Source: Acidimicrobiia bacterium (GTDB lineage Bacteria; Actinomycetota; Acidimicrobiia; Acidimicrobiales; JANYDT01). Taken from it: a DNA stretch of 64,000 nucleotides. Each line of letters begins with the position of its first letter. Within the stretch, counting starts at the first letter, position 1. The notes below the pieces were generated by a model that saw only the letters and a program-made list of their open reading frames with translations, searched no databases and was not told the DNA's origin. Location of the stretch: assembly GCA_031406385.1 (NCBI GenBank), contig JANOHI010000012.1, positions 7,110 through 71,109 on the forward strand. Direction: 5' to 3'. The translations under genes and the position numbers were made by a program. Shown here one piece after another: positions 43,145 through 54,697 of this stretch.

Positions 43145-44377
43145 TCAGCCGAGGACAACGCCGGGAGGAAGGTCGGCGAGCAGAGCGTCGCTGATCCACA
43201 TCTCGGTGAGGTGCAACGTCGAGCGGATCCGGACGACGCGTTTCGGTTCGTGGACCGGTCGGCCGCACATCGAAAGCGCAGCTTTGATCGCGTCTTCCCC
43301 GGTGGGCAGCGCCATCGGCATGCGCGAACGACGAACGCCCGCGGGGCCGGCGGTGAAGCAATTGATGTAGGTCTTGTGCCAATCGACCTTGGCGGCGACC
43401 TCGGTGGTGATGAAGTCGGCGAGACCAATACCCAACGCGTTGCCGTGGCCCCCGTCGGTGAGGCCGAGCGCCACGATGGTCGCCGTTGTCGACTGACCAT
43501 CGAGCCCGTTGACCCAGTAGCGGCCCGTGACGTTCGGGTCCATCATCACGCCGCTGATGTCCTTGCCGATCTCGTTGATGATGAGCACATCGATCGGTTC
43601 GAACGCCAAGCGAGTCACGTGCGTCTTGGCAAGATCGGTGAGGGCGATCTCGCGCGCCGCGCCGATCTCCGATCCGAGCAGGGCCTCGGCCACGACAACG
43701 TCACCGGCGGCGTTCTCGATACTGGCGAATCCACCGAGGAGTCGACCGGTGGTCCGATGCGCGACGATACCGTCGATGATCATCTGACGCATCACCTCGG
43801 GGCCGGACGCATGGATCTGAGCAGCGCCGGGCTGCTTGCCGAATCCGACCACGCACATCTTCGACAGTCCGCTCTCCAGCGGACCGGTGAAGCACGTGTG
43901 CGGCTTGATCCGATTGACCGGAAAGAAGTGGTCGGCACCGGCGGCATGGCGGTCGAGGAACATCGGAACACCGCCGGGCGTGCGGGCCACTTCGACGGTC
44001 TCCATCGTCGCCCGGATGGGTGCGCCCACGGCGTCCTCGGTGATCCCGTAGCCGGTCAGCACTTCGAGCTGTCCCTCGGCCGTCCCACCGCCATGGCTGC
44101 CCATCGCTGGGACGATGAACGGATCGGCGCCTACGGAGCGAAGCCCCTCGATCACGCCGGCGAGCATCTCGACGCGGGCCGTGAGACCACGACTGCCGGC
44201 ACCCACCGCCACGGTTGCTCCGGGGCGGACCACGCCGTCGAAGCGAGCCTTGACGGACGCGGCGGCAGCGGATCGCACGTCGTCGATCGGCACGCCGAAA
44301 GCAGCCGGGAGCACGACCCGGTGGAGTTCGGGGATCGTCAGGTCAGGGTGGAACGGGAGCTTCACACCGCGAAGCAT
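43145..44377 (-). CDS. conserved hypothetical protein (possibly LarA/DUF2088- or DUF362-like; function not assigned)
   Basis: The start is ATG at 44377 (MLRGVKLPF). The conserved-looking blocks IVPAMGSHGGGTAEGQLEVLTGYGI and VNRIKPHTCFTGPLESGLSKM are present. Family recognition is only from memory. Confidence 0.6.
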   Translation of the reverse strand: MLRGVKLPFHPDLTIPELHRVVLPAAFGVPIDDVRSAAAASVKARFDGVVRPGATVAVGAGSRGLTARVEMLAGVIEGLRSVGADPFIVPAMGSHGGGTAEGQLEVLTGYGITEDAVGAPIRATMETVEVARTPGGVPMFLDRHAAGADHFFPVNRIKPHTCFTGPLESGLSKMCVVGFGKQPGAAQIHASGPEVMRQMIIDGIVAHRTTGRLLGGFASIENAAGDVVVAEALLGSEIGAAREIALTDLAKTHVTRLAFEPIDVLIINEIGKDISGVMMDPNVTGRYWVNGLDGQSTTATIVALGLTDGGHGNALGIGLADFITTEVAAKVDWHKTYINCFTAGPAGVRRSRMPMALPTGEDAIKAALSMCGRPVHEPKRVVRIRSTLHLTEMWISDALLADLPPGVVLG

Positions 44378-44672
44378 CGCGGCGAAGTTCGCAGGATCAC
44401 TCGGCGTTGTGGGCACCTTCGCAGCGTATGCCGCTTTCGCGCTGACGACGAGGGCGAGCCGTCGGTGGCGGCTTAGCTCTCGAGGATGTCGGCGTTGCGC
44501 GTCCGGTTGGCGCCACGTTGTCGAGTTGACGACACGCTCAACCAGCCACGCAAGTCGCCAACCAACCACACAATCCGACAGTCCGAACGCCAACCCGGGC
44601 GCGAACGGCTTGGCGGAAGAACTAACCACCCGATTAGATTTCGCTCACACAACACCACCGATGGAGGACACC

Positions 44673-45197
44673 ATGGCCCGGATCGACGTACCGGAGGGCG
44701 AAGGACTCGAAGCAACCCGCATGTGGATGCTCGCTCCGCACATCGGAGCGGGGGTGGGTGCGCTCGGCAAGGCCACCTATGTGGAGAGCAGCCTGCCGAT
44801 CCGCGAGCGCGAAGTCGCCCGCATGCGGATCGCTCAGCTCAACCAATGCGTTGTTTGACTGAATACTCGAGCCGCATCGGCGATGCGGCAGGGACTCTCC
44901 GATGAGCTGTACAACGCTGTCGCCGACTACCGGACCGACGAGCGATTCACCCCCCGCGAAAAGCTGGCCATCGAGTTCGCCGAATGGTTCGCCATCGACC
45001 ACACCGCCATCGACGACGCGTTCTTCGTCCGGCTGCGCGAACTGTTCTCCGACCCCGAGGTGTTGGAGTTGACGATCACCATCGGTTACTGCGTCGGGAT
45101 CGGCCGGGCATTTCACGTGCTCGACGTCGCCCGCGACTTCGAGGTGCTGTGGAGCAAGGAACCGAAGCCGGTCGAAGCAGCGGAGCCCAGCGCGTGA
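44673..45197 (+). CDS. carboxymuconolactone decarboxylase (CMD/AhpD-like) family protein with in-frame TGA at 44856-44858 (candidate selenocysteine, CxxU)
   Basis: GGAGGA lies 4 nt upstream of ATG 44673. The two ORF-track pieces (..REVARMRIAQLNQCVV* and MRQGLSDELYNAVADY..) are in the same frame, and joined they give a 174-aa CMD-family protein. The TGA sits where the second Cys of CxxC is expected. Confidence 0.6.
44871..44889 (+). promoter_or_regulatory. SECIS-like hairpin: GCCGCATC-ggc-GATGCGGC, 12 nt downstream of the TGA
   Basis: It is a perfect 8-bp stem with a 3-nt G-rich loop. Its spacing from the UGA is comparable to bacterial SECIS elements. Confidence 0.5.
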
Positions 45198-46438
45198 GCG
45201 ATACCACGATCACCGAGCGAAACAACGGCGTCTCATACGACCCGTTCGCACCGGAGACTCTGGCCGACCCCATGGCTGCGTACGCCGAGCTGCGCGAGAA
45301 GTGCCCCGTCCACCGGTTCGAAGACTTCACCCCCTCGTTCGCCACGATCACGCGCTACGACGATGTCGTCGCCGTGCTCAAGGACACGGCGCAGTGGAGC
45401 AGCCGCTACGGACAGACGCCGCAGTTCACCCGCGGCACCGGGCTGAACCAGGACCCGCCCGACCACACGGAGTTCCGCAAGCTCTTCCAGAAGGGCTTCA
45501 CGCCGCGCATGATCGGTCGCCTCGACGATGAGGTGCACGAGCTGGCCGTCGCTCTGGTCGACGACATGGCGGCCGTTGCGAAGCGTCGCGGCGATCTTCA
45601 CGATCTCCTCGCCTGCCCGCTCCCGGTGATCGTTATCGCCAAACTGCTCGGTGTCCCGCCGACCGAGCTCGTGCAGTTCAAGCAGTGGTCCGACGATCTC
45701 GTCGCGTGCTTCAACAATCCCGATCCACGCGCGCCCGACAAGATCCGGGCCGAGCTCAACGCCTACTTCCAAGGGTTCATCGACGATCGACGCGCCCTGC
45801 TGGCAGCGGCCGGCGTCGACGAGCCGGACGAATCACACCTCGGCACGGTCGTGCCGAACGACCTCATCGGCGGCTTCGTGGTCGCGACCTATCAAGGCCG
45901 ACGGCTCAGCGACCCGGAACTCCATCAGGTGCTCATCCAGCTCCTCGCCGGCGGCAACGAGACCACCACCTCGCTCATCACGAACTGCGTCCTCCGCCTG
46001 TTGGAGGACCGCACTCGCTGGGAGGCGCTTTGCGCCGACCCATCGCTGGTCGACACGGCGCTCGAGGAGAGCCTCCGCTTCGACCCACCGGTTCTGGGCT
46101 TGTTCCGCACGAACAACGAAGCGGTGGAGATGCACGGCGTGTGCCTTGGCGAGAAGACCAAGGTCATGGTCACCTACGCCTCGGCGAACCGTGATGCGTC
46201 GGTGTTCTCCGACCCCGACACGTTCCGCCTCGATCGTCCCGCGGAAGAACTGCGCCGTCACCTGTCCTTCGGTCTCGGTCACCACTACTGCCCGGGCGCG
46301 TCGCTGTCGCGGCTCGAAGCACGCACTGCACTGCGTCTACTTGTCGAACGCTTCCCCGACCTCCGGCTCGATGGTGCACCGGTGCGCATTGCCCCGTTCA
46401 ACCTGTGGGGACGTCGCTCGCTCCCCGTGGCATGGTGA
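45194..46438 (+). CDS. cytochrome P450
   Basis: The GTG start overlaps the upstream stop (GTGA 45194-45197). It carries the EXXR block and the heme-binding FGLGHHYCPGASLS. Confidence 0.9.
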   Translation: MSDTTITERNNGVSYDPFAPETLADPMAAYAELREKCPVHRFEDFTPSFATITRYDDVVAVLKDTAQWSSRYGQTPQFTRGTGLNQDPPDHTEFRKLFQKGFTPRMIGRLDDEVHELAVALVDDMAAVAKRRGDLHDLLACPLPVIVIAKLLGVPPTELVQFKQWSDDLVACFNNPDPRAPDKIRAELNAYFQGFIDDRRALLAAAGVDEPDESHLGTVVPNDLIGGFVVATYQGRRLSDPELHQVLIQLLAGGNETTTSLITNCVLRLLEDRTRWEALCADPSLVDTALEESLRFDPPVLGLFRTNNEAVEMHGVCLGEKTKVMVTYASANRDASVFSDPDTFRLDRPAEELRRHLSFGLGHHYCPGASLSRLEARTALRLLVERFPDLRLDGAPVRIAPFNLWGRRSLPVAW

Positions 46439-46443
46439 TCCCC

Positions 46444-46827
46444 ATGGAACAACTCACTCCTCTCGAAACCGTCCGGGCCTTCATCGCCGCCATCGAGCGA
46501 CGAGACATCGAAGCCGCCCTCGTCTTTGTCGACGAGCACTGCGAATACGACAACGTGCCCATGGGCAAGAACTTCGGCCGCGAATCGATCGGCAAGGTGC
46601 TCGGCCCGTTCATCACTGGTTGTTCCGAGGTCGAGTGGGTCACCCATCGTGAGGCGGCCACAGGGCCGATCGTGTGCAACGAACGGACCGACCGGTTCCG
46701 TCTCCCCCACGGCTGGGTGGAGATGCCAGTGACGGGAGTCTGGGAGGTACACGATGGCCTCATCACCTTGTGGCGCGACTACTTCGATGCCGCAACGTTC
46801 ACGTCGCAGATGCCGGGGCGGTCGTGA
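46444..46827 (+). CDS. limonene-1,2-epoxide hydrolase / SnoaL-like (NTF2 fold) protein
   Basis: LETVRAFIAAIERRDIEAAL..NERTDRF..VTGVWEVHDGLITLWRDYFD matches the LEH-family pattern. An alternative start lies at 46432. Confidence 0.75.
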   Translation: MEQLTPLETVRAFIAAIERRDIEAALVFVDEHCEYDNVPMGKNFGRESIGKVLGPFITGCSEVEWVTHREAATGPIVCNERTDRFRLPHGWVEMPVTGVWEVHDGLITLWRDYFDAATFTSQMPGRS

Positions 46828-47279
46828 CGGCTGTTGCTGCTGCGCTGTACGCCGAACGACTCGGCCATGCTCCCGACGTCGCCGCCACACTCGACGCAGC
46901 CTGGGATGCGGCCTGGTCGTCGGTCGACCCGTGCCTGCTCGAGCTCTGCCGACTCGAGATCGCCACGATTCTGCGCAACCCCGCAGAGTTCGAGTCGCGC
47001 ACACCGGCGGCGATCGCCGCCGGTTTCGACGACCGCAAGGTCGCCGCACTCGCATCGTGGATGCGCTCTCCGATGATCACCGCGGCGGAGCAGGCATGCC
47101 TGGCCTTCACCGACGCCTTCGTCATCGACGTTGCGTCGCTGCCGGATGAGACCGCGGCCGCCGTTCGCGAACACCTGGGTGACGCCGGACTCGTCGACTT
47201 CGCATCTGCGCTGCTCGTGCTCGAACAGCGCCAGCGGCTCGCCCTCGTGTGGACATCGTTGTTCGCGCGGGCGTCATGA
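46824..47279 (+). CDS. CMD/AhpD-like family paralogue without the CxxC/CxxU motif
   Basis: The GTG start overlaps the upstream stop (GTGA 46824-46827). LLELCRLEIATILRNPAEF..ITAAEQACLAFTDAFV resembles the CMD fold but lacks redox Cys residues. Confidence 0.6.
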   Translation: MTAVAAALYAERLGHAPDVAATLDAAWDAAWSSVDPCLLELCRLEIATILRNPAEFESRTPAAIAAGFDDRKVAALASWMRSPMITAAEQACLAFTDAFVIDVASLPDETAAAVREHLGDAGLVDFASALLVLEQRQRLALVWTSLFARAS

Positions 47280-47776
47280 GCCGGGCACGCCGAGTAGCTC
47301 CGGGCACGCCGACCGCGCCGGCGCTGCGCCGATCGCTCGGTGACCTGGCGGCGGCGACGGTCCGCATGGACGCCATGGATCCGGTCATCACCGAACTCGT
47401 CCGCATGCAATGTGCCCGACACCACGATTGCGGCACTTGACTGTCCGTTCGCCTGGCAGTTGCCAGGGATCAAGGACTCGATGAAGCAACCATCGCCAAA
47501 GGTGACCCGCGATCACGGGCGGAGCTCGCACCGGCGCAGCGTGCCGCCCTCGACCTCGCGGATGCACTGATGACGATGCCTGCGCTGGTTCCGGCCGAGC
47601 TGATCGAACGTATGCACACACACTTCTCGCCGGAACAGATCGTCGAGCTCACCCTCGACGTGATGAAGTGGAACGCTCAGAAGGTCCCCGTGGCCCTCGG
47701 CATCGACGACTGGGTCCGCCCGGGCGAGCTATCCGACCTCGTCTTCGACACCGACGGCCGATGGGTCCGTGGCTGA
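47276..47776 (+). CDS. CMD/AhpD-like family protein with in-frame TGA at 47438-47440 (candidate selenocysteine, CxxU)
   Basis: The ATG overlaps the upstream stop (ATGA 47276-47279). The ORF-track pieces 47249-47440 (..ELVRMQCARHHDCGT*) and 47570-47776 are in the same frame with no other stop between them. The joined protein is 166 aa. The TGA is at the second Cys position of the CxxC motif (CGT-TGA). Confidence 0.6.
47452..47467 (+). promoter_or_regulatory. SECIS-like hairpin: CCTGGC-agtt-GCCAGG, 11 nt downstream of the TGA
   Basis: The inverted repeat CCTGGCA/TGCCAGG is seen directly. G and U in the loop lie about 22-23 nt from the U of UGA. Confidence 0.5.
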
Positions 47777-47808: not shown

Positions 47809-47889
47809 CGGTAGGGAGAACACGCTGCTGTTGGTAGCGTAAACCTGCTGCGAATGGTAGCGTGAATGATCGGCGTTTGGTAGCGTAAA
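47809..47889 (+). repeat. phased direct repeats TGGTAGCGT(A/G)AA at 23-bp spacing (3 good copies + 1 degenerate)
   Basis: Copies lie at 47832-47843, 47855-47866 and 47878-47889. A degenerate copy cGGTAGgGaGAA lies at 47809-47820. The last copy ends 3 nt before ATG 47893. Confidence 0.75.
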
Positions 47890-47892
47890 GGC

Positions 47893-49164
47893 ATGTCCTA
47901 TCAACGTCGGATCATCGACGATGAGCTCGATGCCCTGTTTCCGCACCTCGCCGCCATCGCGCTTGAAGGTCCGAAGGGTGTTGGAAAAACAGCTACCGGC
48001 CTAGAGCGGGCGCGCTCGACGCTTCACCTCGATGACCCGTTGCAGCAGTCTCTCTTGGGCGCCGACCCGGCTCGCCTTGACCGGCTGGAAACGCCCGTGT
48101 TGTTGGACGAATGGCAGCGCTACCCCCGGTCATGGGACCTGGTGCGTCGATCGGTCGATGCCGACTCGACAGGGGGACGATTCCTCCTCGCCGGGAGCGC
48201 CACACCGCCAGAGCTTCCGATGCACTCGGGCGCAGGTCGAATCGTTCGGCTGAAGATGCGCCCGCTCAGCTTGGTTGAACGCAACATCGCCGAACCTTCG
48301 GTCAGCCTCGCGGCGTTCCTGACCCAAGGTGTCAATGCCGTTGGTGGCGATTCACCGGTGCGCCTCGTTGACTACGTCGACGAGATCGTCGCATCGGGAA
48401 TGCCGGCAATTCGAGGCCTCCCGCCTCAGCCACGGGCCAAGCAACTCGACAGCTACCTCGAGCGCATTGCCGACGTCGAGTTCGCGGAGCAAGGTGTGCG
48501 CGTGAACCGCCCGGCGTCACTCCGAGCTTGGATGATGGCGTACGCGGCAGCAACCGCATCGACTGCGTCGTACGCAACGATCCTCGACGCCGCGACACCG
48601 GGCGAGTCGGACAAGCCGGCAAAGACCACTGCAATGCGCTACCGCGACGTGCTGTCTCGACTGTGGATTCTTGATCCCATTCCCGGTTGGTACCCGGCCG
48701 GGAACCTGCTGACTCGACTCGCCCAAGCACCCAAACATCACCTGGTCGATCCTGGCTTTGCCGCCAGGCTGGTTGGGGCAACGGCGTCGTCGCTGTTGAG
48801 CGGTCAAGTTCTTCGAGGTGCCAAGAACACCGACGAAGGATTTGTAGGTGCACTGTTTGAGTCGCTTGTCGCTCAGTCGGTCCGTGTCTATGCCCAGCGC
48901 GCGTCGGCAACGGTCCACCACCTCCGAACTCGCAACGGGGACCACGAGGTGGACCTGATTGTCGAAGGCGAAGACCGACGCATCGTGGCGATCGAAGTCA
49001 AGCTCGCACCCGACATTTCGGATCGAGACGTCAGGCATCTCCACTGGGTGCAATCACAGCTCGGCGACCGCGTCGCGGCAGCGGTGATTGTGACAACTGG
49101 TCAGTATGCATACCGACGGAGCGATGGCATCTTTGTTGTTCCAGCAGCGCTCCTCGGTCCGTAG
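47893..49164 (+). CDS. AAA-type ATP-binding protein with DUF4143-like C-terminal domain
   Basis: It carries the Walker A LEGPKGVGKTATG and Walker B-like VLLDEWQRYP. The C-terminal nuclease-like block reads HHLRTRNGDHEVDLIVEGEDRRIVAIEVK. Confidence 0.85.
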   Translation: MSYQRRIIDDELDALFPHLAAIALEGPKGVGKTATGLERARSTLHLDDPLQQSLLGADPARLDRLETPVLLDEWQRYPRSWDLVRRSVDADSTGGRFLLAGSATPPELPMHSGAGRIVRLKMRPLSLVERNIAEPSVSLAAFLTQGVNAVGGDSPVRLVDYVDEIVASGMPAIRGLPPQPRAKQLDSYLERIADVEFAEQGVRVNRPASLRAWMMAYAAATASTASYATILDAATPGESDKPAKTTAMRYRDVLSRLWILDPIPGWYPAGNLLTRLAQAPKHHLVDPGFAARLVGATASSLLSGQVLRGAKNTDEGFVGALFESLVAQSVRVYAQRASATVHHLRTRNGDHEVDLIVEGEDRRIVAIEVKLAPDISDRDVRHLHWVQSQLGDRVAAAVIVTTGQYAYRRSDGIFVVPAALLGP

Positions 49165-51942: not shown

Positions 51943-53229
51943 TCACCAGCGGACGGGGAGAGCCCAACAGGTGTGAACCTCGCCCACGCGCAAAGCCCGG
52001 CGCACGGGGACGACGCCACCGGCCAGTGCGATGCCCGGACACTCGTCGAGAAGCACCCGCGAAACCGTGATGGCGAGGTCACGGGTCAGCGCGTATGCCG
52101 ATCTCGGACGATCCTCCGGCACCGCGGGATGCTTCGACGGGGCACCCGTACCGAAGGAGACGCCACTCGCCAGACCATCGGCACGGTACGTCCCGCGCGG
52201 TTCGCGCTGGCAGACGTCCTTACGGAGGAGATCGAACCTGTCGGGATCTTCAAAGATCCTCGGGTCGCGGTTGGCCGCGGCGGCTGAACACCGAAGGAGC
52301 GCGCCGTCGGGAAGCAATCGCCCGAAGCGCTCGACCTCGTGCCGTGCGAATCGATCGGCCGACAGGATCGGCGGGCTGTGCCGGAGCGTTTCCGCCCATG
52401 CCGACTTGACGAGGCGGGGGTTGCGGCGAACCTCATCGAACTGGTCGGGGTTGGTGAGCAGCAGGCTCCACATGTTGGCGAGACCGCCGTGGAGCGTCTC
52501 GTGGTCGGCTTCGAGAAGGGTGGCCACGACATCATCGACAGTCCCGCCGAGACCGGCGATCACCGCCGCCAACCCCTCACCCTGATCCGTAGGTGCGCGT
52601 AGGAGTTCACGAAGTTCATCGATAGCTCTACGAGCGGCCTGTCGCGCTTGGGGCTCCCAACCGACGCCCCGCTGCATGGTGAGAAACGCCGCGACGAAGC
52701 GCTCCTCTTCTGCGTCGTCGACACCCAGAGTGCGGGCGAGCAGACGGATCGGGAATCGAGCGCAGAGCTCGATCGAAAGGTCGCGGGTCGTCCCTTCGAC
52801 CATCTCGCTGACGAGTTCGCGGGCGACCCGCTCACCGTGCTCGTCGGCATAGGCGGTGACGAACGATCGGACCGCGAGGTCGCTGCCGAAGTCGTTGGCC
52901 CAGCGATCGAGGCCGCTGCGCCAACGACGGGTTCGTGTCTCGTAGTTGGCCTCGTCGACGAACACCGACGTGACATCGTCGTAGCGGGTGACCCAGAACG
53001 CGTTGCCCGGCCAGTCGCGGTAGCAGGGATAGTTCTCGCGAAGGATGCCGACGAGCGTGAACGGGTCGTCGAGATAGGCCGACGACGAGAGTTGACGCGG
53101 TTTGATCAGCGGAGTTGTTTCTCGAACCCGCATGCGCTGGTACACCTCATACGAGCGGAAACCGGTCTTTGCTCCGCGCGGTGCGCTGACCGCAGGCTCA
53201 TCGACGGCGTAGCCGTCGGTCACGGTCAT
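51943..53229 (-). CDS. cytochrome P450 homologue lacking the canonical heme-ligand cysteine
   Basis: ATG 53229 has GGAG upstream, 1 nt after the stop of the upstream P450. It is paralogous to the 53231-54697 product (shared ..WVTRYDD.. and the unusual loop before the heme site). However, the FxxGxxxCxG position reads FGTGAPSKHPAVPEDRPRSAY. Confidence 0.7.
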   Translation of the reverse strand: MTVTDGYAVDEPAVSAPRGAKTGFRSYEVYQRMRVRETTPLIKPRQLSSSAYLDDPFTLVGILRENYPCYRDWPGNAFWVTRYDDVTSVFVDEANYETRTRRWRSGLDRWANDFGSDLAVRSFVTAYADEHGERVARELVSEMVEGTTRDLSIELCARFPIRLLARTLGVDDAEEERFVAAFLTMQRGVGWEPQARQAARRAIDELRELLRAPTDQGEGLAAVIAGLGGTVDDVVATLLEADHETLHGGLANMWSLLLTNPDQFDEVRRNPRLVKSAWAETLRHSPPILSADRFARHEVERFGRLLPDGALLRCSAAAANRDPRIFEDPDRFDLLRKDVCQREPRGTYRADGLASGVSFGTGAPSKHPAVPEDRPRSAYALTRDLAITVSRVLLDECPGIALAGGVVPVRRALRVGEVHTCWALPVRW

Positions 53230-53230
53230 C

Positions 53231-54697
53231 TCAGGTGCTCCGACGAAGGTGCAGCCACAGCGAACGGATCGCCCCGAGCCCGATCGGGGCGAGTGAGACG
53301 CCGTCGATGTCTTTGGGCATGCGGTCCACGTCGATGCGCATCTCGTAGCCCCGTCGGGCCATCGTCTCGGAGAGAACCTTCGAACCGACCACCGTCTCCT
53401 GCTGGGAGATCCACGCGCCGGGACACAGGTGCGGGCCGACACCGAACGCCATATGACTGGCGCGGCCGTCCTTGCGGTACCCGCTGCGCAGGATCTTGCC
53501 GGTGTAGAGATCGCGTCGGCTGATGTCGAATCGCTCCGGTTCAGCGAATACGCGATCGTCGTGGTTGGCGGAGAAGTCGACCATCTGCATCAGTGAGCCG
53601 GCCGGGACCCGCACGCCGTGCATCTCGAGATCGAAGCTGTTGTGACGGGGTTGGCCTCCGATCGACGACGAGTGTCGAAGCATCTCGTGGAACGCCGCGT
53701 CCCACAGAGATTCGTCAGCGCGCAGACCTTCGTATTGATCGAGATTGGTGAGCAGGAGATACCACAGGTTCATGATCGCACCCCGGGTCGTCTCCCCACC
53801 GCCACCGACGATGAGCGCGATGTTGGACGTGATCTCCTCGGTTGACAGCAGATCTCCGTCGACCCGGCTGGCACAGAGCTCGGAGATGATGTCGGGGCCG
53901 ATCGGGTCGCCGTTGTCGTCGAGAAGCATCGTCGGACGCGCCCGACGTTCGGCGACAAGGCTCTCGACGAAGTCCTCAAGGTCTTGACGGGCCTCGATAC
54001 CGCGGTGCGCCGACTCGGAGCCGCCGAGGCCGTTCATCATCGACGAGTACCAGTAGAAGAACTGCGAACGTGCCTCGTCCGGAAAGCCGAGCACCTGGCA
54101 GACAACGCGGATCGGGAACTCGTTGGCAAAACCGGCGCCCAGCTCGACGGAGAACTCGCGCGTCGAGTCGTTGGGGTCGGCCGGCACGACCGCTCCATCG
54201 GGCGCCGTGCCGGAGGTCCAGGTGTCGATCATCTCAGCGGCCAGGCGTTCGATGACGCCAAGTCGGCGGTCCAGTGCTTTGCCGATGAGGTGGCGTCCAT
54301 AGAGGTTGCGGCGACGGCGATGCTCGATCCCCGAGAGCTCCAACTGCGTGTTCCCGAGCACACCCGAAGACATGCCCTTCGGAATCGTGTTGAACCCTTC
54401 CTCGTCCATGTAGCACGCCGTGATGTCGTCGTAGCGGGTGACCCAGTAGGCGTTGTGCAGGGGATCGTGGAAGACCGGATAGTGATCGCGCAAGATCCGG
54501 TAGTACGGGTACGGGTTGCGCTGGAACTCCGCGGAGTCGAAGATCCGGGGATCAACGAGTGGGACGCCGTTCGCATCGGTGCCCATGTCACACGGCTGCC
54601 CCAGGGGCATGAGGGGGAACTGCACGCGGGTGTCGGAAAACGCGTCGTCGAGGCCGAGGGCGTCGTCGAGGACGTTGCGGAACGGGCATGCACTCAT
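53231..54697 (-). CDS. cytochrome P450
   Basis: 488 aa with the heme-binding block MAFGVGPHLCPGAWIS. Confidence 0.9.
   Translation of the reverse strand: MSACPFRNVLDDALGLDDAFSDTRVQFPLMPLGQPCDMGTDANGVPLVDPRIFDSAEFQRNPYPYYRILRDHYPVFHDPLHNAYWVTRYDDITACYMDEEGFNTIPKGMSSGVLGNTQLELSGIEHRRRRNLYGRHLIGKALDRRLGVIERLAAEMIDTWTSGTAPDGAVVPADPNDSTREFSVELGAGFANEFPIRVVCQVLGFPDEARSQFFYWYSSMMNGLGGSESAHRGIEARQDLEDFVESLVAERRARPTMLLDDNGDPIGPDIISELCASRVDGDLLSTEEITSNIALIVGGGGETTRGAIMNLWYLLLTNLDQYEGLRADESLWDAAFHEMLRHSSSIGGQPRHNSFDLEMHGVRVPAGSLMQMVDFSANHDDRVFAEPERFDISRRDLYTGKILRSGYRKDGRASHMAFGVGPHLCPGAWISQQETVVGSKVLSETMARRGYEMRIDVDRMPKDIDGVSLAPIGLGAIRSLWLHLRRST

Follow-up and report, generated by a model that had tools for sequence, protein, structure and literature searches.

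A conserved in-frame TGA followed by a compact hairpin marks a selenoprotein candidate of the AhpD/CMD superfamily in Acidimicrobiia

We examined a 64,000-nucleotide (64-kb) stretch of contig JANOHI010000012.1 from an Acidimicrobiia bacterium (assembly GCA_031406385.1), hereafter the window, in which the gene g2 (47276..47776, + strand) carries an in-frame TGA at 47438..47440. The analysis indicates that g2 is very probably a functional gene whose UGA at 47438 is recoded as selenocysteine (Sec), which would stand at the second Cys position of a CxxC motif. The original prediction had proposed, from the letters of the window, a CxxU selenoprotein of the CMD/AhpD family, and this proposal is supported by the TGA, by homologues with Cys in its place, by a hairpin directly downstream and by fold evidence. 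As such, g2 is a selenoprotein candidate of a kind known since 2005, while an Acidimicrobiia-wide C-x-T-U...R subfamily, its CMD-like partner gene and its compact selenocysteine insertion sequence (SECIS) may be new.

An in-frame TGA conserved across related loci

From its ATG at 47276, which overlaps the stop codon of the upstream gene g3 (TGA 47277-47279, as ATGA), to the TGA at 47774-47776, g2 forms one + strand frame of 166 codons. Translation of 47249-47776 gives ..RMQCARHHDCGT*LSVRLAVARDQGLDE.. and the TGA at 47438-47440 is the sole internal stop (..ELVRMQCARHHDCGT-TGA-LSVRLAVARDQGLDE...), so that the frame is open to 47776 apart from this codon, as had been claimed. With Sec at the TGA, the active-site motif would read C52-G-T-U55. 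Codon-position GC contents 3' of the TGA (0.76/0.44/0.76) are those of real genes in this window of 64% GC; the values for the 53 codons 5' of it (0.60/0.77/0.75) are less gene-like.

Relatives were sought by scanning one genome per GTDB species, which found 120, and 80 loci with 51-93% protein identity to g2 were fetched and compared. Their source labels are almost all Acidimicrobiia, Acidimicrobiales, Ilumatobacteraceae or broader actinobacterial names. The codon aligned to 47438 is TGA in the window and in all 80 related loci, within a C-x-T-TGA motif. Since the 60 nt 3' of the TGA occur as 70 distinct sequences, the loci represent independent lineages rather than assembly copies of one sequence. 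Among near relatives, synonymous changes are at least as numerous as non-synonymous ones on both sides of the TGA (5:1 before and 6:1 after it in the comparison with L001), a pattern pointing to purifying selection on both halves of g2, and the 111 codons 3' of the TGA are the best-conserved part of the family. Coding conservation is hence present downstream of the TGA, in keeping with the original prediction. As a separate matter, several lake metagenome-assembled genomes (L031, L034, L040, L042, L048, L054 and L064) are titled 'Bifidobacterium breve', 'uncultured Bifidobacterium sp.' or 'Bdellovibrionales'; as carriers of an Acidimicrobiia-type g2, these are probably mislabelled or mis-binned records.

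In a single sequence, a lone in-frame stop within an otherwise intact gene resembles a recent nonsense mutation, and g2 could on that ground be taken for a pseudogene, namely a CMD gene killed by such a mutation. This explanation has next to no probability once the same TGA is found in 80/80 loci, even at 51% identity, flanked by regions under purifying selection and followed by a conserved hairpin, and the comparative data led us to reject it. The claim that independent nonsense mutations are unlikely is likewise borne out by the recurrence of this codon.

The residue replaced at the TGA can be read from homologues. Cys occupies the TGA column, within a CxxC motif, in the full-length proteins P0004, P0005, P0009 and P0012, and longer fused homologues (P0247 and others) read CRIC or CRLC at this place, which agrees with the earlier assignment of the TGA to a redox-Cys codon of CxxC. 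The TGA is therefore best described as an inferred Sec codon at the second Cys position, on the basis of a conserved column and of Cys in homologues.

A single full-length entry, P0001, shows Trp in this column, although its DNA (JGI contig L083, 110-547) has TGA. It is the only full-length database entry of the TGA form, and the JGI call apparently used code 4 or 25. Were TGA a sense codon throughout the lineage (code 4 or 25), such a rendering as W would be correct; yet g2 itself terminates at a TGA in 66 of 79 loci, TGA ends all five genes of the operon to which g2 belongs, and the open reading frames (ORFs) of the window fit table 11. Genetic-code reassignment, whose probability is vanishingly small, was rejected on this stop-codon usage. 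That TGA ends g2 and the operon genes also means that the recoding is site-specific.

Public annotations split g2 into a short N-terminal ORF and a 'hypothetical protein' of ~108 aa. A protein search with g2 read through the TGA (Sec replaced by Cys) returned 146 matches, most of ~108 aa, which span only the C-terminal 65% and start 1-3 residues past the TGA position; about 100 database clusters are such fragments, beginning just after the TGA because gene callers stop at the conserved in-frame codon. Taken at face value, these calls, which give the C-terminal part its own ORF, would mean that translation ends at the TGA and yields a 54-aa peptide plus a separately initiated C-terminal protein of ~108 aa. 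We regard this as very unlikely: no conserved start codon follows the TGA, gene callers having begun at a GTN or CTN codon with a free third position (GTT in the window), and the first in-frame start lies at 47570, 44 codons on. Moreover, such a split would place the two residues of the redox motif on different products and break up a helix of the AhpD fold, and the Cys homologues and fusions run continuously across the TGA column. With the annotation mended, at least 80 species-level genomes would gain a selenoprotein, and selenium dependence would be implied for these organisms.

A SECIS-like hairpin downstream of the TGA

The hairpin CCTGGC-AGTT-GCCAGG (47452..47467, + strand) starts 11 nt past the TGA, where it had been noticed originally, and consists of a 6-bp stem (CCUGGC/GCCAGG) closed by an A-GU-U loop (47458-47461). 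The minimum-free-energy structure of 47438-47491 (-18.8 kcal/mol) contains it, yet the significance of the hairpin comes from the comparison with relatives and not from the sequence of the window alone, the evidence being pairing and covariation. The pairing figures and loop counts below refer to 68 distinct sequences (alignment A2).

The offset of +11 nt is fixed in all loci. Pairing across the six positions of the stem amounts to 94.9%, and at four of them both sides have changed, as illustrated by the compensatory series CCUGGC/GCCAGG, CUUGGC/GCCAAG, UUUGGC/GCCAAA and GGGAGC/GCUCGC. In the tetraloop, which reads either A-GU-U or G-GU-C, G22 and U23 are invariant, and the bases flanking the GU (A2 columns 21-24, window 47458-47461) covary without exception (A..U in 46 sequences, G..C in 22) through changes that are synonymous on both sides (GCA/GCG and GUU/GUC). 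Judged from the alignment, this perfect covariation would imply either that a seventh pair closes a loop of just two bases, GU, or that SelB makes a specific contact here. The covariation score of the hairpin reaches 0.224 as against 0.129 ± 0.007 in shuffled alignments, with 0/500 shuffles matching it and all slid controls lower. A strict scan of all loci for a TGA followed by a hairpin with an NGUN loop recovered only g2 orthologues, including L019 and L074.

The hairpin follows the TGA also in its absence from Cys forms, being missing at the same place in two such genes, L087 and L088. The stretch that encodes it always reads RLAVA[RK] in TGA forms and RLVDAK, RLADAR or RVGAAR in Cys forms; the restriction of RLAVA[RK] to TGA forms indicates that the RNA structure constrains the protein sequence only where the TGA is present. 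Two lower stems of a longer SECIS (A2 6-9/37-40 and 12-13/31-32) were tried and rejected, as they are 68% and 38% paired with little covariation.

In the fdhF SECIS of E. coli, the bases that contact SelB are also a G and a U, and the minimal element also lies 11 nt from the UGA. The g2 hairpin shares with it a position directly 3' of the UGA and a GU in the loop, and the GGUC variant, present in 22 of the 68 g2-type sequences, recalls the fdhF loop itself. It differs in being much shorter, in lacking a conserved lower stem and a bulged U, and in having a tetraloop where fdhF has a hexaloop. Bacterial SECIS elements in general have a 6-8-bp stem and a conserved loop G ~20 nt past the UGA (PMC4605307), and the g2 hairpin resembles them in stem size, in its small apical loop and in a G ~20 nt from the UGA. 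With its 6-bp stem, N-GU-N loop and fixed 11-nt spacer, this compact SECIS offers a clean training example for models of bacterial SECIS elements, which Rfam lacks.

Protein family and inserted residue

The CMD profile of Pfam (PF02627) matches g2 alone under its cut-off (17.3 bits vs 23), while some of its Cys homologues have a precomputed PF02627 match. The best NCBIfam matches are far under their cut-offs, namely NF053654, 'YciW-related (seleno)protein' (31.9 vs 310 bits), and NF041047, 'GSU3128 family (seleno)protein' (20.3 vs 110 bits), both CMD-superfamily families that include Sec forms; g2 belongs to neither and represents a subfamily without an NCBIfam model. A profile of the g2 family searched against the PDB matched AhpD/PA0269 of Pseudomonas aeruginosa (2ijc, 2o4d and 7xw1; E 7.6e-10 to 2e-9), Agrobacterium Atu0492 (2gmy; E 4.6e-8) and the debrominase Bmp8 (E 3e-6), and the C-x-T-C/U column aligns with CAYC of PA0269. 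The fold evidence comes from an AlphaFold2 model of the Cys homologue P0004, 52% identical to g2, and not of g2 itself. This model is all-helical (predicted local distance difference test score, pLDDT, 77; predicted template-modelling score, pTM, 0.70), and its top Foldseek matches in the PDB are all AhpD/CMD proteins (probability 1.00, template-modelling score 0.6-0.75). Profile and modelled fold together place g2, as a predicted member, in the AhpD/CMD superfamily.

The closest solved structures, PA0269 (2ijc, 2o4d, 7xw1) and Atu0492 (2gmy), differ from g2 in having Cys rather than Sec and CxxCxxxH rather than CxxUxxxR, at ~20% identity, and, as far as tested, they have no g3-like partner gene. 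AhpD of Mycobacterium tuberculosis (1gu9, 1lw1) is of the same fold class and has a redox CxxC, with no Sec and a marginal structural similarity (E > 1). It contains two CMD-like repeats in one chain, an arrangement comparable to g3 plus g2 and to the fused homologues, and a catalytic relay, Glu118/His137, unlike g2. Within the g2 family, C52 and position 55 are invariant, and His50, Asp51, Thr54, Ser57 and Arg59 are conserved.

Relatives of g2 are annotated by JGI as 'alkylhydroperoxidase family enzyme', which we take to be the name of COG2128. CxxU selenoproteins of the AhpD-like (COG2128) and CMD-domain (PF02627) types were reported from the Sargasso Sea in 2005 (Zhang et al., PMC1088965). 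They were later found among the most abundant selenoprotein families of the Global Ocean Sampling (GOS) data, with 299 and 70 sequences, AhpD-like 2 being enriched in non-marine samples (Zhang and Gladyshev 2008, PMC2398784), and they appear in current reviews (PMC13188914). The g2 product resembles these families in its superfamily, in a CxxU with Sec for the second Cys, in a hairpin with a loop G after the UGA and in widespread Cys homologues. Compared by description only, its subfamily is set apart by C-x-T-U, by Arg for His at +4 and by the CMD-like partner gene; it is also restricted to Acidimicrobiia among the genomes found. The general picture of selenoprotein biology is unchanged by g2; what it adds is that Acidimicrobiia, a widespread and mostly uncultured class including the abundant freshwater Ilumatobacteraceae, carry a conserved AhpD-like selenoprotein candidate.

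Several observations weigh against Sec at this position. The single-sequence fold energy of the hairpin region is unexceptional (z = -1.65, 14 of 200 shuffles folding equally well), and the lower-stem pairings of the window fold are not conserved, so that the minimal hairpin alone is supported. Neither a gathering-level Rfam scan of the window nor one with E up to 10 around the hairpin gave a SECIS match. As the hairpin lies inside coding sequence, protein constraint could explain part of its conservation. ARAGORN detected no tRNA-Sec in the window or in 60 related loci, and E. coli SelA, SelB and SelD had no tblastn match at E up to 1e-3 in the window and 80 loci (~1.1 Mb). Finally, where AhpD has His, four residues past the second Cys, the g2 family has an invariant Arg (R59), and the chemistry of g2 may accordingly differ from that of AhpD.

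Some of these points can be answered. Bacterial SECIS elements are poorly covered in Rfam, and protein constraint is disfavoured as the cause of the hairpin because of the covariation at synonymous sites and the differing sequences of Cys forms. With respect to the machinery, sel genes are not linked to g2 in the window and ~1.1 Mb of related loci. In Actinomarinales, another order of Acidimicrobiia, selABCD is described as universal in a preprint (bioRxiv 10.64898/2026.04.03.716425), beyond which we found nothing specific in the literature on Sec use in Ilumatobacter or Acidimicrobiales.

The sequence evidence on g2 supports recoding without identifying the residue, and the UGA could be recoded via the same hairpin with Cys or another standard residue inserted, giving an ordinary CxxC protein. 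One route would be a tRNA-Sec-like tRNAReC acting with SelB, another near-cognate read-through stimulated by the RNA structure. Decoding of UGA plus SECIS as Cys by tRNAReC is on record (Vargas-Rodriguez et al. 2018, as cited in PMC13582414), and the failure to find Sec machinery in the window and the ~1.1 Mb of sequence from related loci is compatible with such a recoding. We nonetheless consider it improbable. To obtain Cys, TGC or TGT would do at no cost, but no locus among the 80 has gone back to either, which argues that the recoded residue is not simply Cys; according to a survey (PMC13582414), tRNAReC is uncommon in most genomes of the Sec type (~2.3% of those lacking the UXXU motif) and as a rule accompanies a canonical tRNASec; and Actinomarinales, from the same class, possess the complete Sec machinery (bioRxiv 10.64898/2026.04.03.716425). 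We thus infer that the inserted residue is Sec, a reading strengthened by a second gene of the same operon, g1, which shows the same Sec/Cys pattern.

Recoding as Sec would follow the established bacterial pathway. With the UGA in the ribosomal A site, the hairpin of 6-7 bp, which starts 11 nt downstream, would leave the mRNA channel and might offer its invariant G-U loop to SelB-GTP-Sec-tRNASec. SelB would then deliver Sec, and the resulting C-G-T-U redox centre would stand where AhpD-type proteins have their CxxC, at a helix N-terminus. The product would be a small all-helical thiol-selenol oxidoreductase of AhpD/CMD fold, whose likely chemistry is a selenenylsulfide/selenol-thiol cycle reducing a peroxide, a disulfide or a similar substrate.

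Partner gene, operon and neighbourhood

Directly 5' of g2 lies g3 (46824..47279, + strand), a CMD-like partner of 151 aa without CxxC, recognized by weak CMD and YciW-related matches and by synteny; it is a third CMD-like gene at the locus, beyond the two paralogues of the original prediction. About 70 loci keep it directly upstream of g2, the two genes overlapping by 4 nt in 47 of 70, and it also precedes the Cys-form P0004. An exhaustive profile search returned 924 relatives, many of which are proteins of 280-350 aa joining a g3-like and a g2-like CxxC domain in one chain; P0247, P0252, P0256, P0260 and P0265 are such fusions, with the g3-like part N-terminal and the g2-like CxxC part C-terminal. 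This Rosetta-stone pattern argues that g3 and g2 act together, and in Acidimicrobiia the separate genes look as if a protein with two CMD domains had been divided. The g2 protein would most likely work with co-translated g3 as a split two-domain unit, presumably in a complex, and the pair and its fusions provide a testable hypothesis on how two-domain AhpD-like proteins work.

The g3-g2 pair closes a series of five + strand genes (44673-47776) with overlapping start and stop codons of GTGA or ATGA type, all ending in TGA. The series begins with g1 (44673-45197, CMD family), followed by a cytochrome P450 (45194-46438) and a limonene-epoxide-hydrolase (LEH)/SnoaL-like protein (46432-46827), the latter two identified by Pfam matches and by gene calls on the Logan contig L084. 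These five genes, g1-P450-LEH-g3-g2, form an operon with a selenoprotein candidate gene at each end; the whole arrangement is syntenic only in the closest relatives, L001-L004.

As had been claimed for this paralogue, g1 has a TGA (44856-44858, C-V-V-TGA) at the same CxxC codon: it shares an alignment column with the TGA of g2 at 47438, with CVV-TGA in g1 vs CGT-TGA in g2. Each gene also proves to have its own hairpin, that of g1 being GCCGCATC-GGC-GATGCGGC at 44871-44889. The g1 product passes the Pfam CMD cut-off (38.6 bits) and, like g2, has Arg at +4 (CVVULNTR), where PA0269 has His. Its Cys forms, e.g. P0121 (72% identity), read LNQCVVCLNTR, its TGA forms appear as 104-aa fragments, and the TGA is retained in L001-L003; a g1 fragment in the databases, P0143, is 100% identical. 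A further CMD paralogue, at 6286-6618 of L050 (- strand), is 37% identical to g1 and has an in-frame TGA in the same column (C-H-Y-TGA), which would bring the L050 lineage to at least three distinct CxxU CMD selenoprotein candidates.

In this organism, the activity of g2 may serve the P450 and epoxide-hydrolase-like enzymes encoded alongside it in the operon. A bolder proposal, which we hold to be rather unlikely, is that g3 and g2 form an obligate heteromeric 'split AhpD', made of a catalytically dead CMD subunit and a Sec-bearing one, and that together with g1 it acts as a dedicated redox partner or protector of these two enzymes of the translationally coupled operon; the g3-g2 unit might even perform a Bmp8-like reductive dehalogenation rather than peroxide reduction. 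If true, the split-AhpD system would be a selenium-dependent accessory to oxidative catabolism in freshwater and soil Acidimicrobiia, a role undescribed for AhpD-like selenoproteins.

Downstream of the operon, three direct repeats GGTAGCGT(A/G)AA with a 23-nt spacing (47833-47889) lie just upstream of a DUF4143/AAA_14 ATPase gene (47893-49164). This gene is present in L001 and L003 and absent at the same place in L002, a pattern that suggests a variable insertion bringing operator-like repeats of its own. On the other side, a 494-aa ORF (43145-44629, - strand) diverges from the operon; it has good coding statistics, is conserved in L001-L003 and has no Pfam match at E up to 1e-4. Two more P450 paralogues, 26-28% identical to that of the operon, are encoded at 51946-54697 (- strand), near an AMP-binding ligase, kinases and an MFS transporter, and this region looks like a catabolic or xenobiotic-oxidation neighbourhood.

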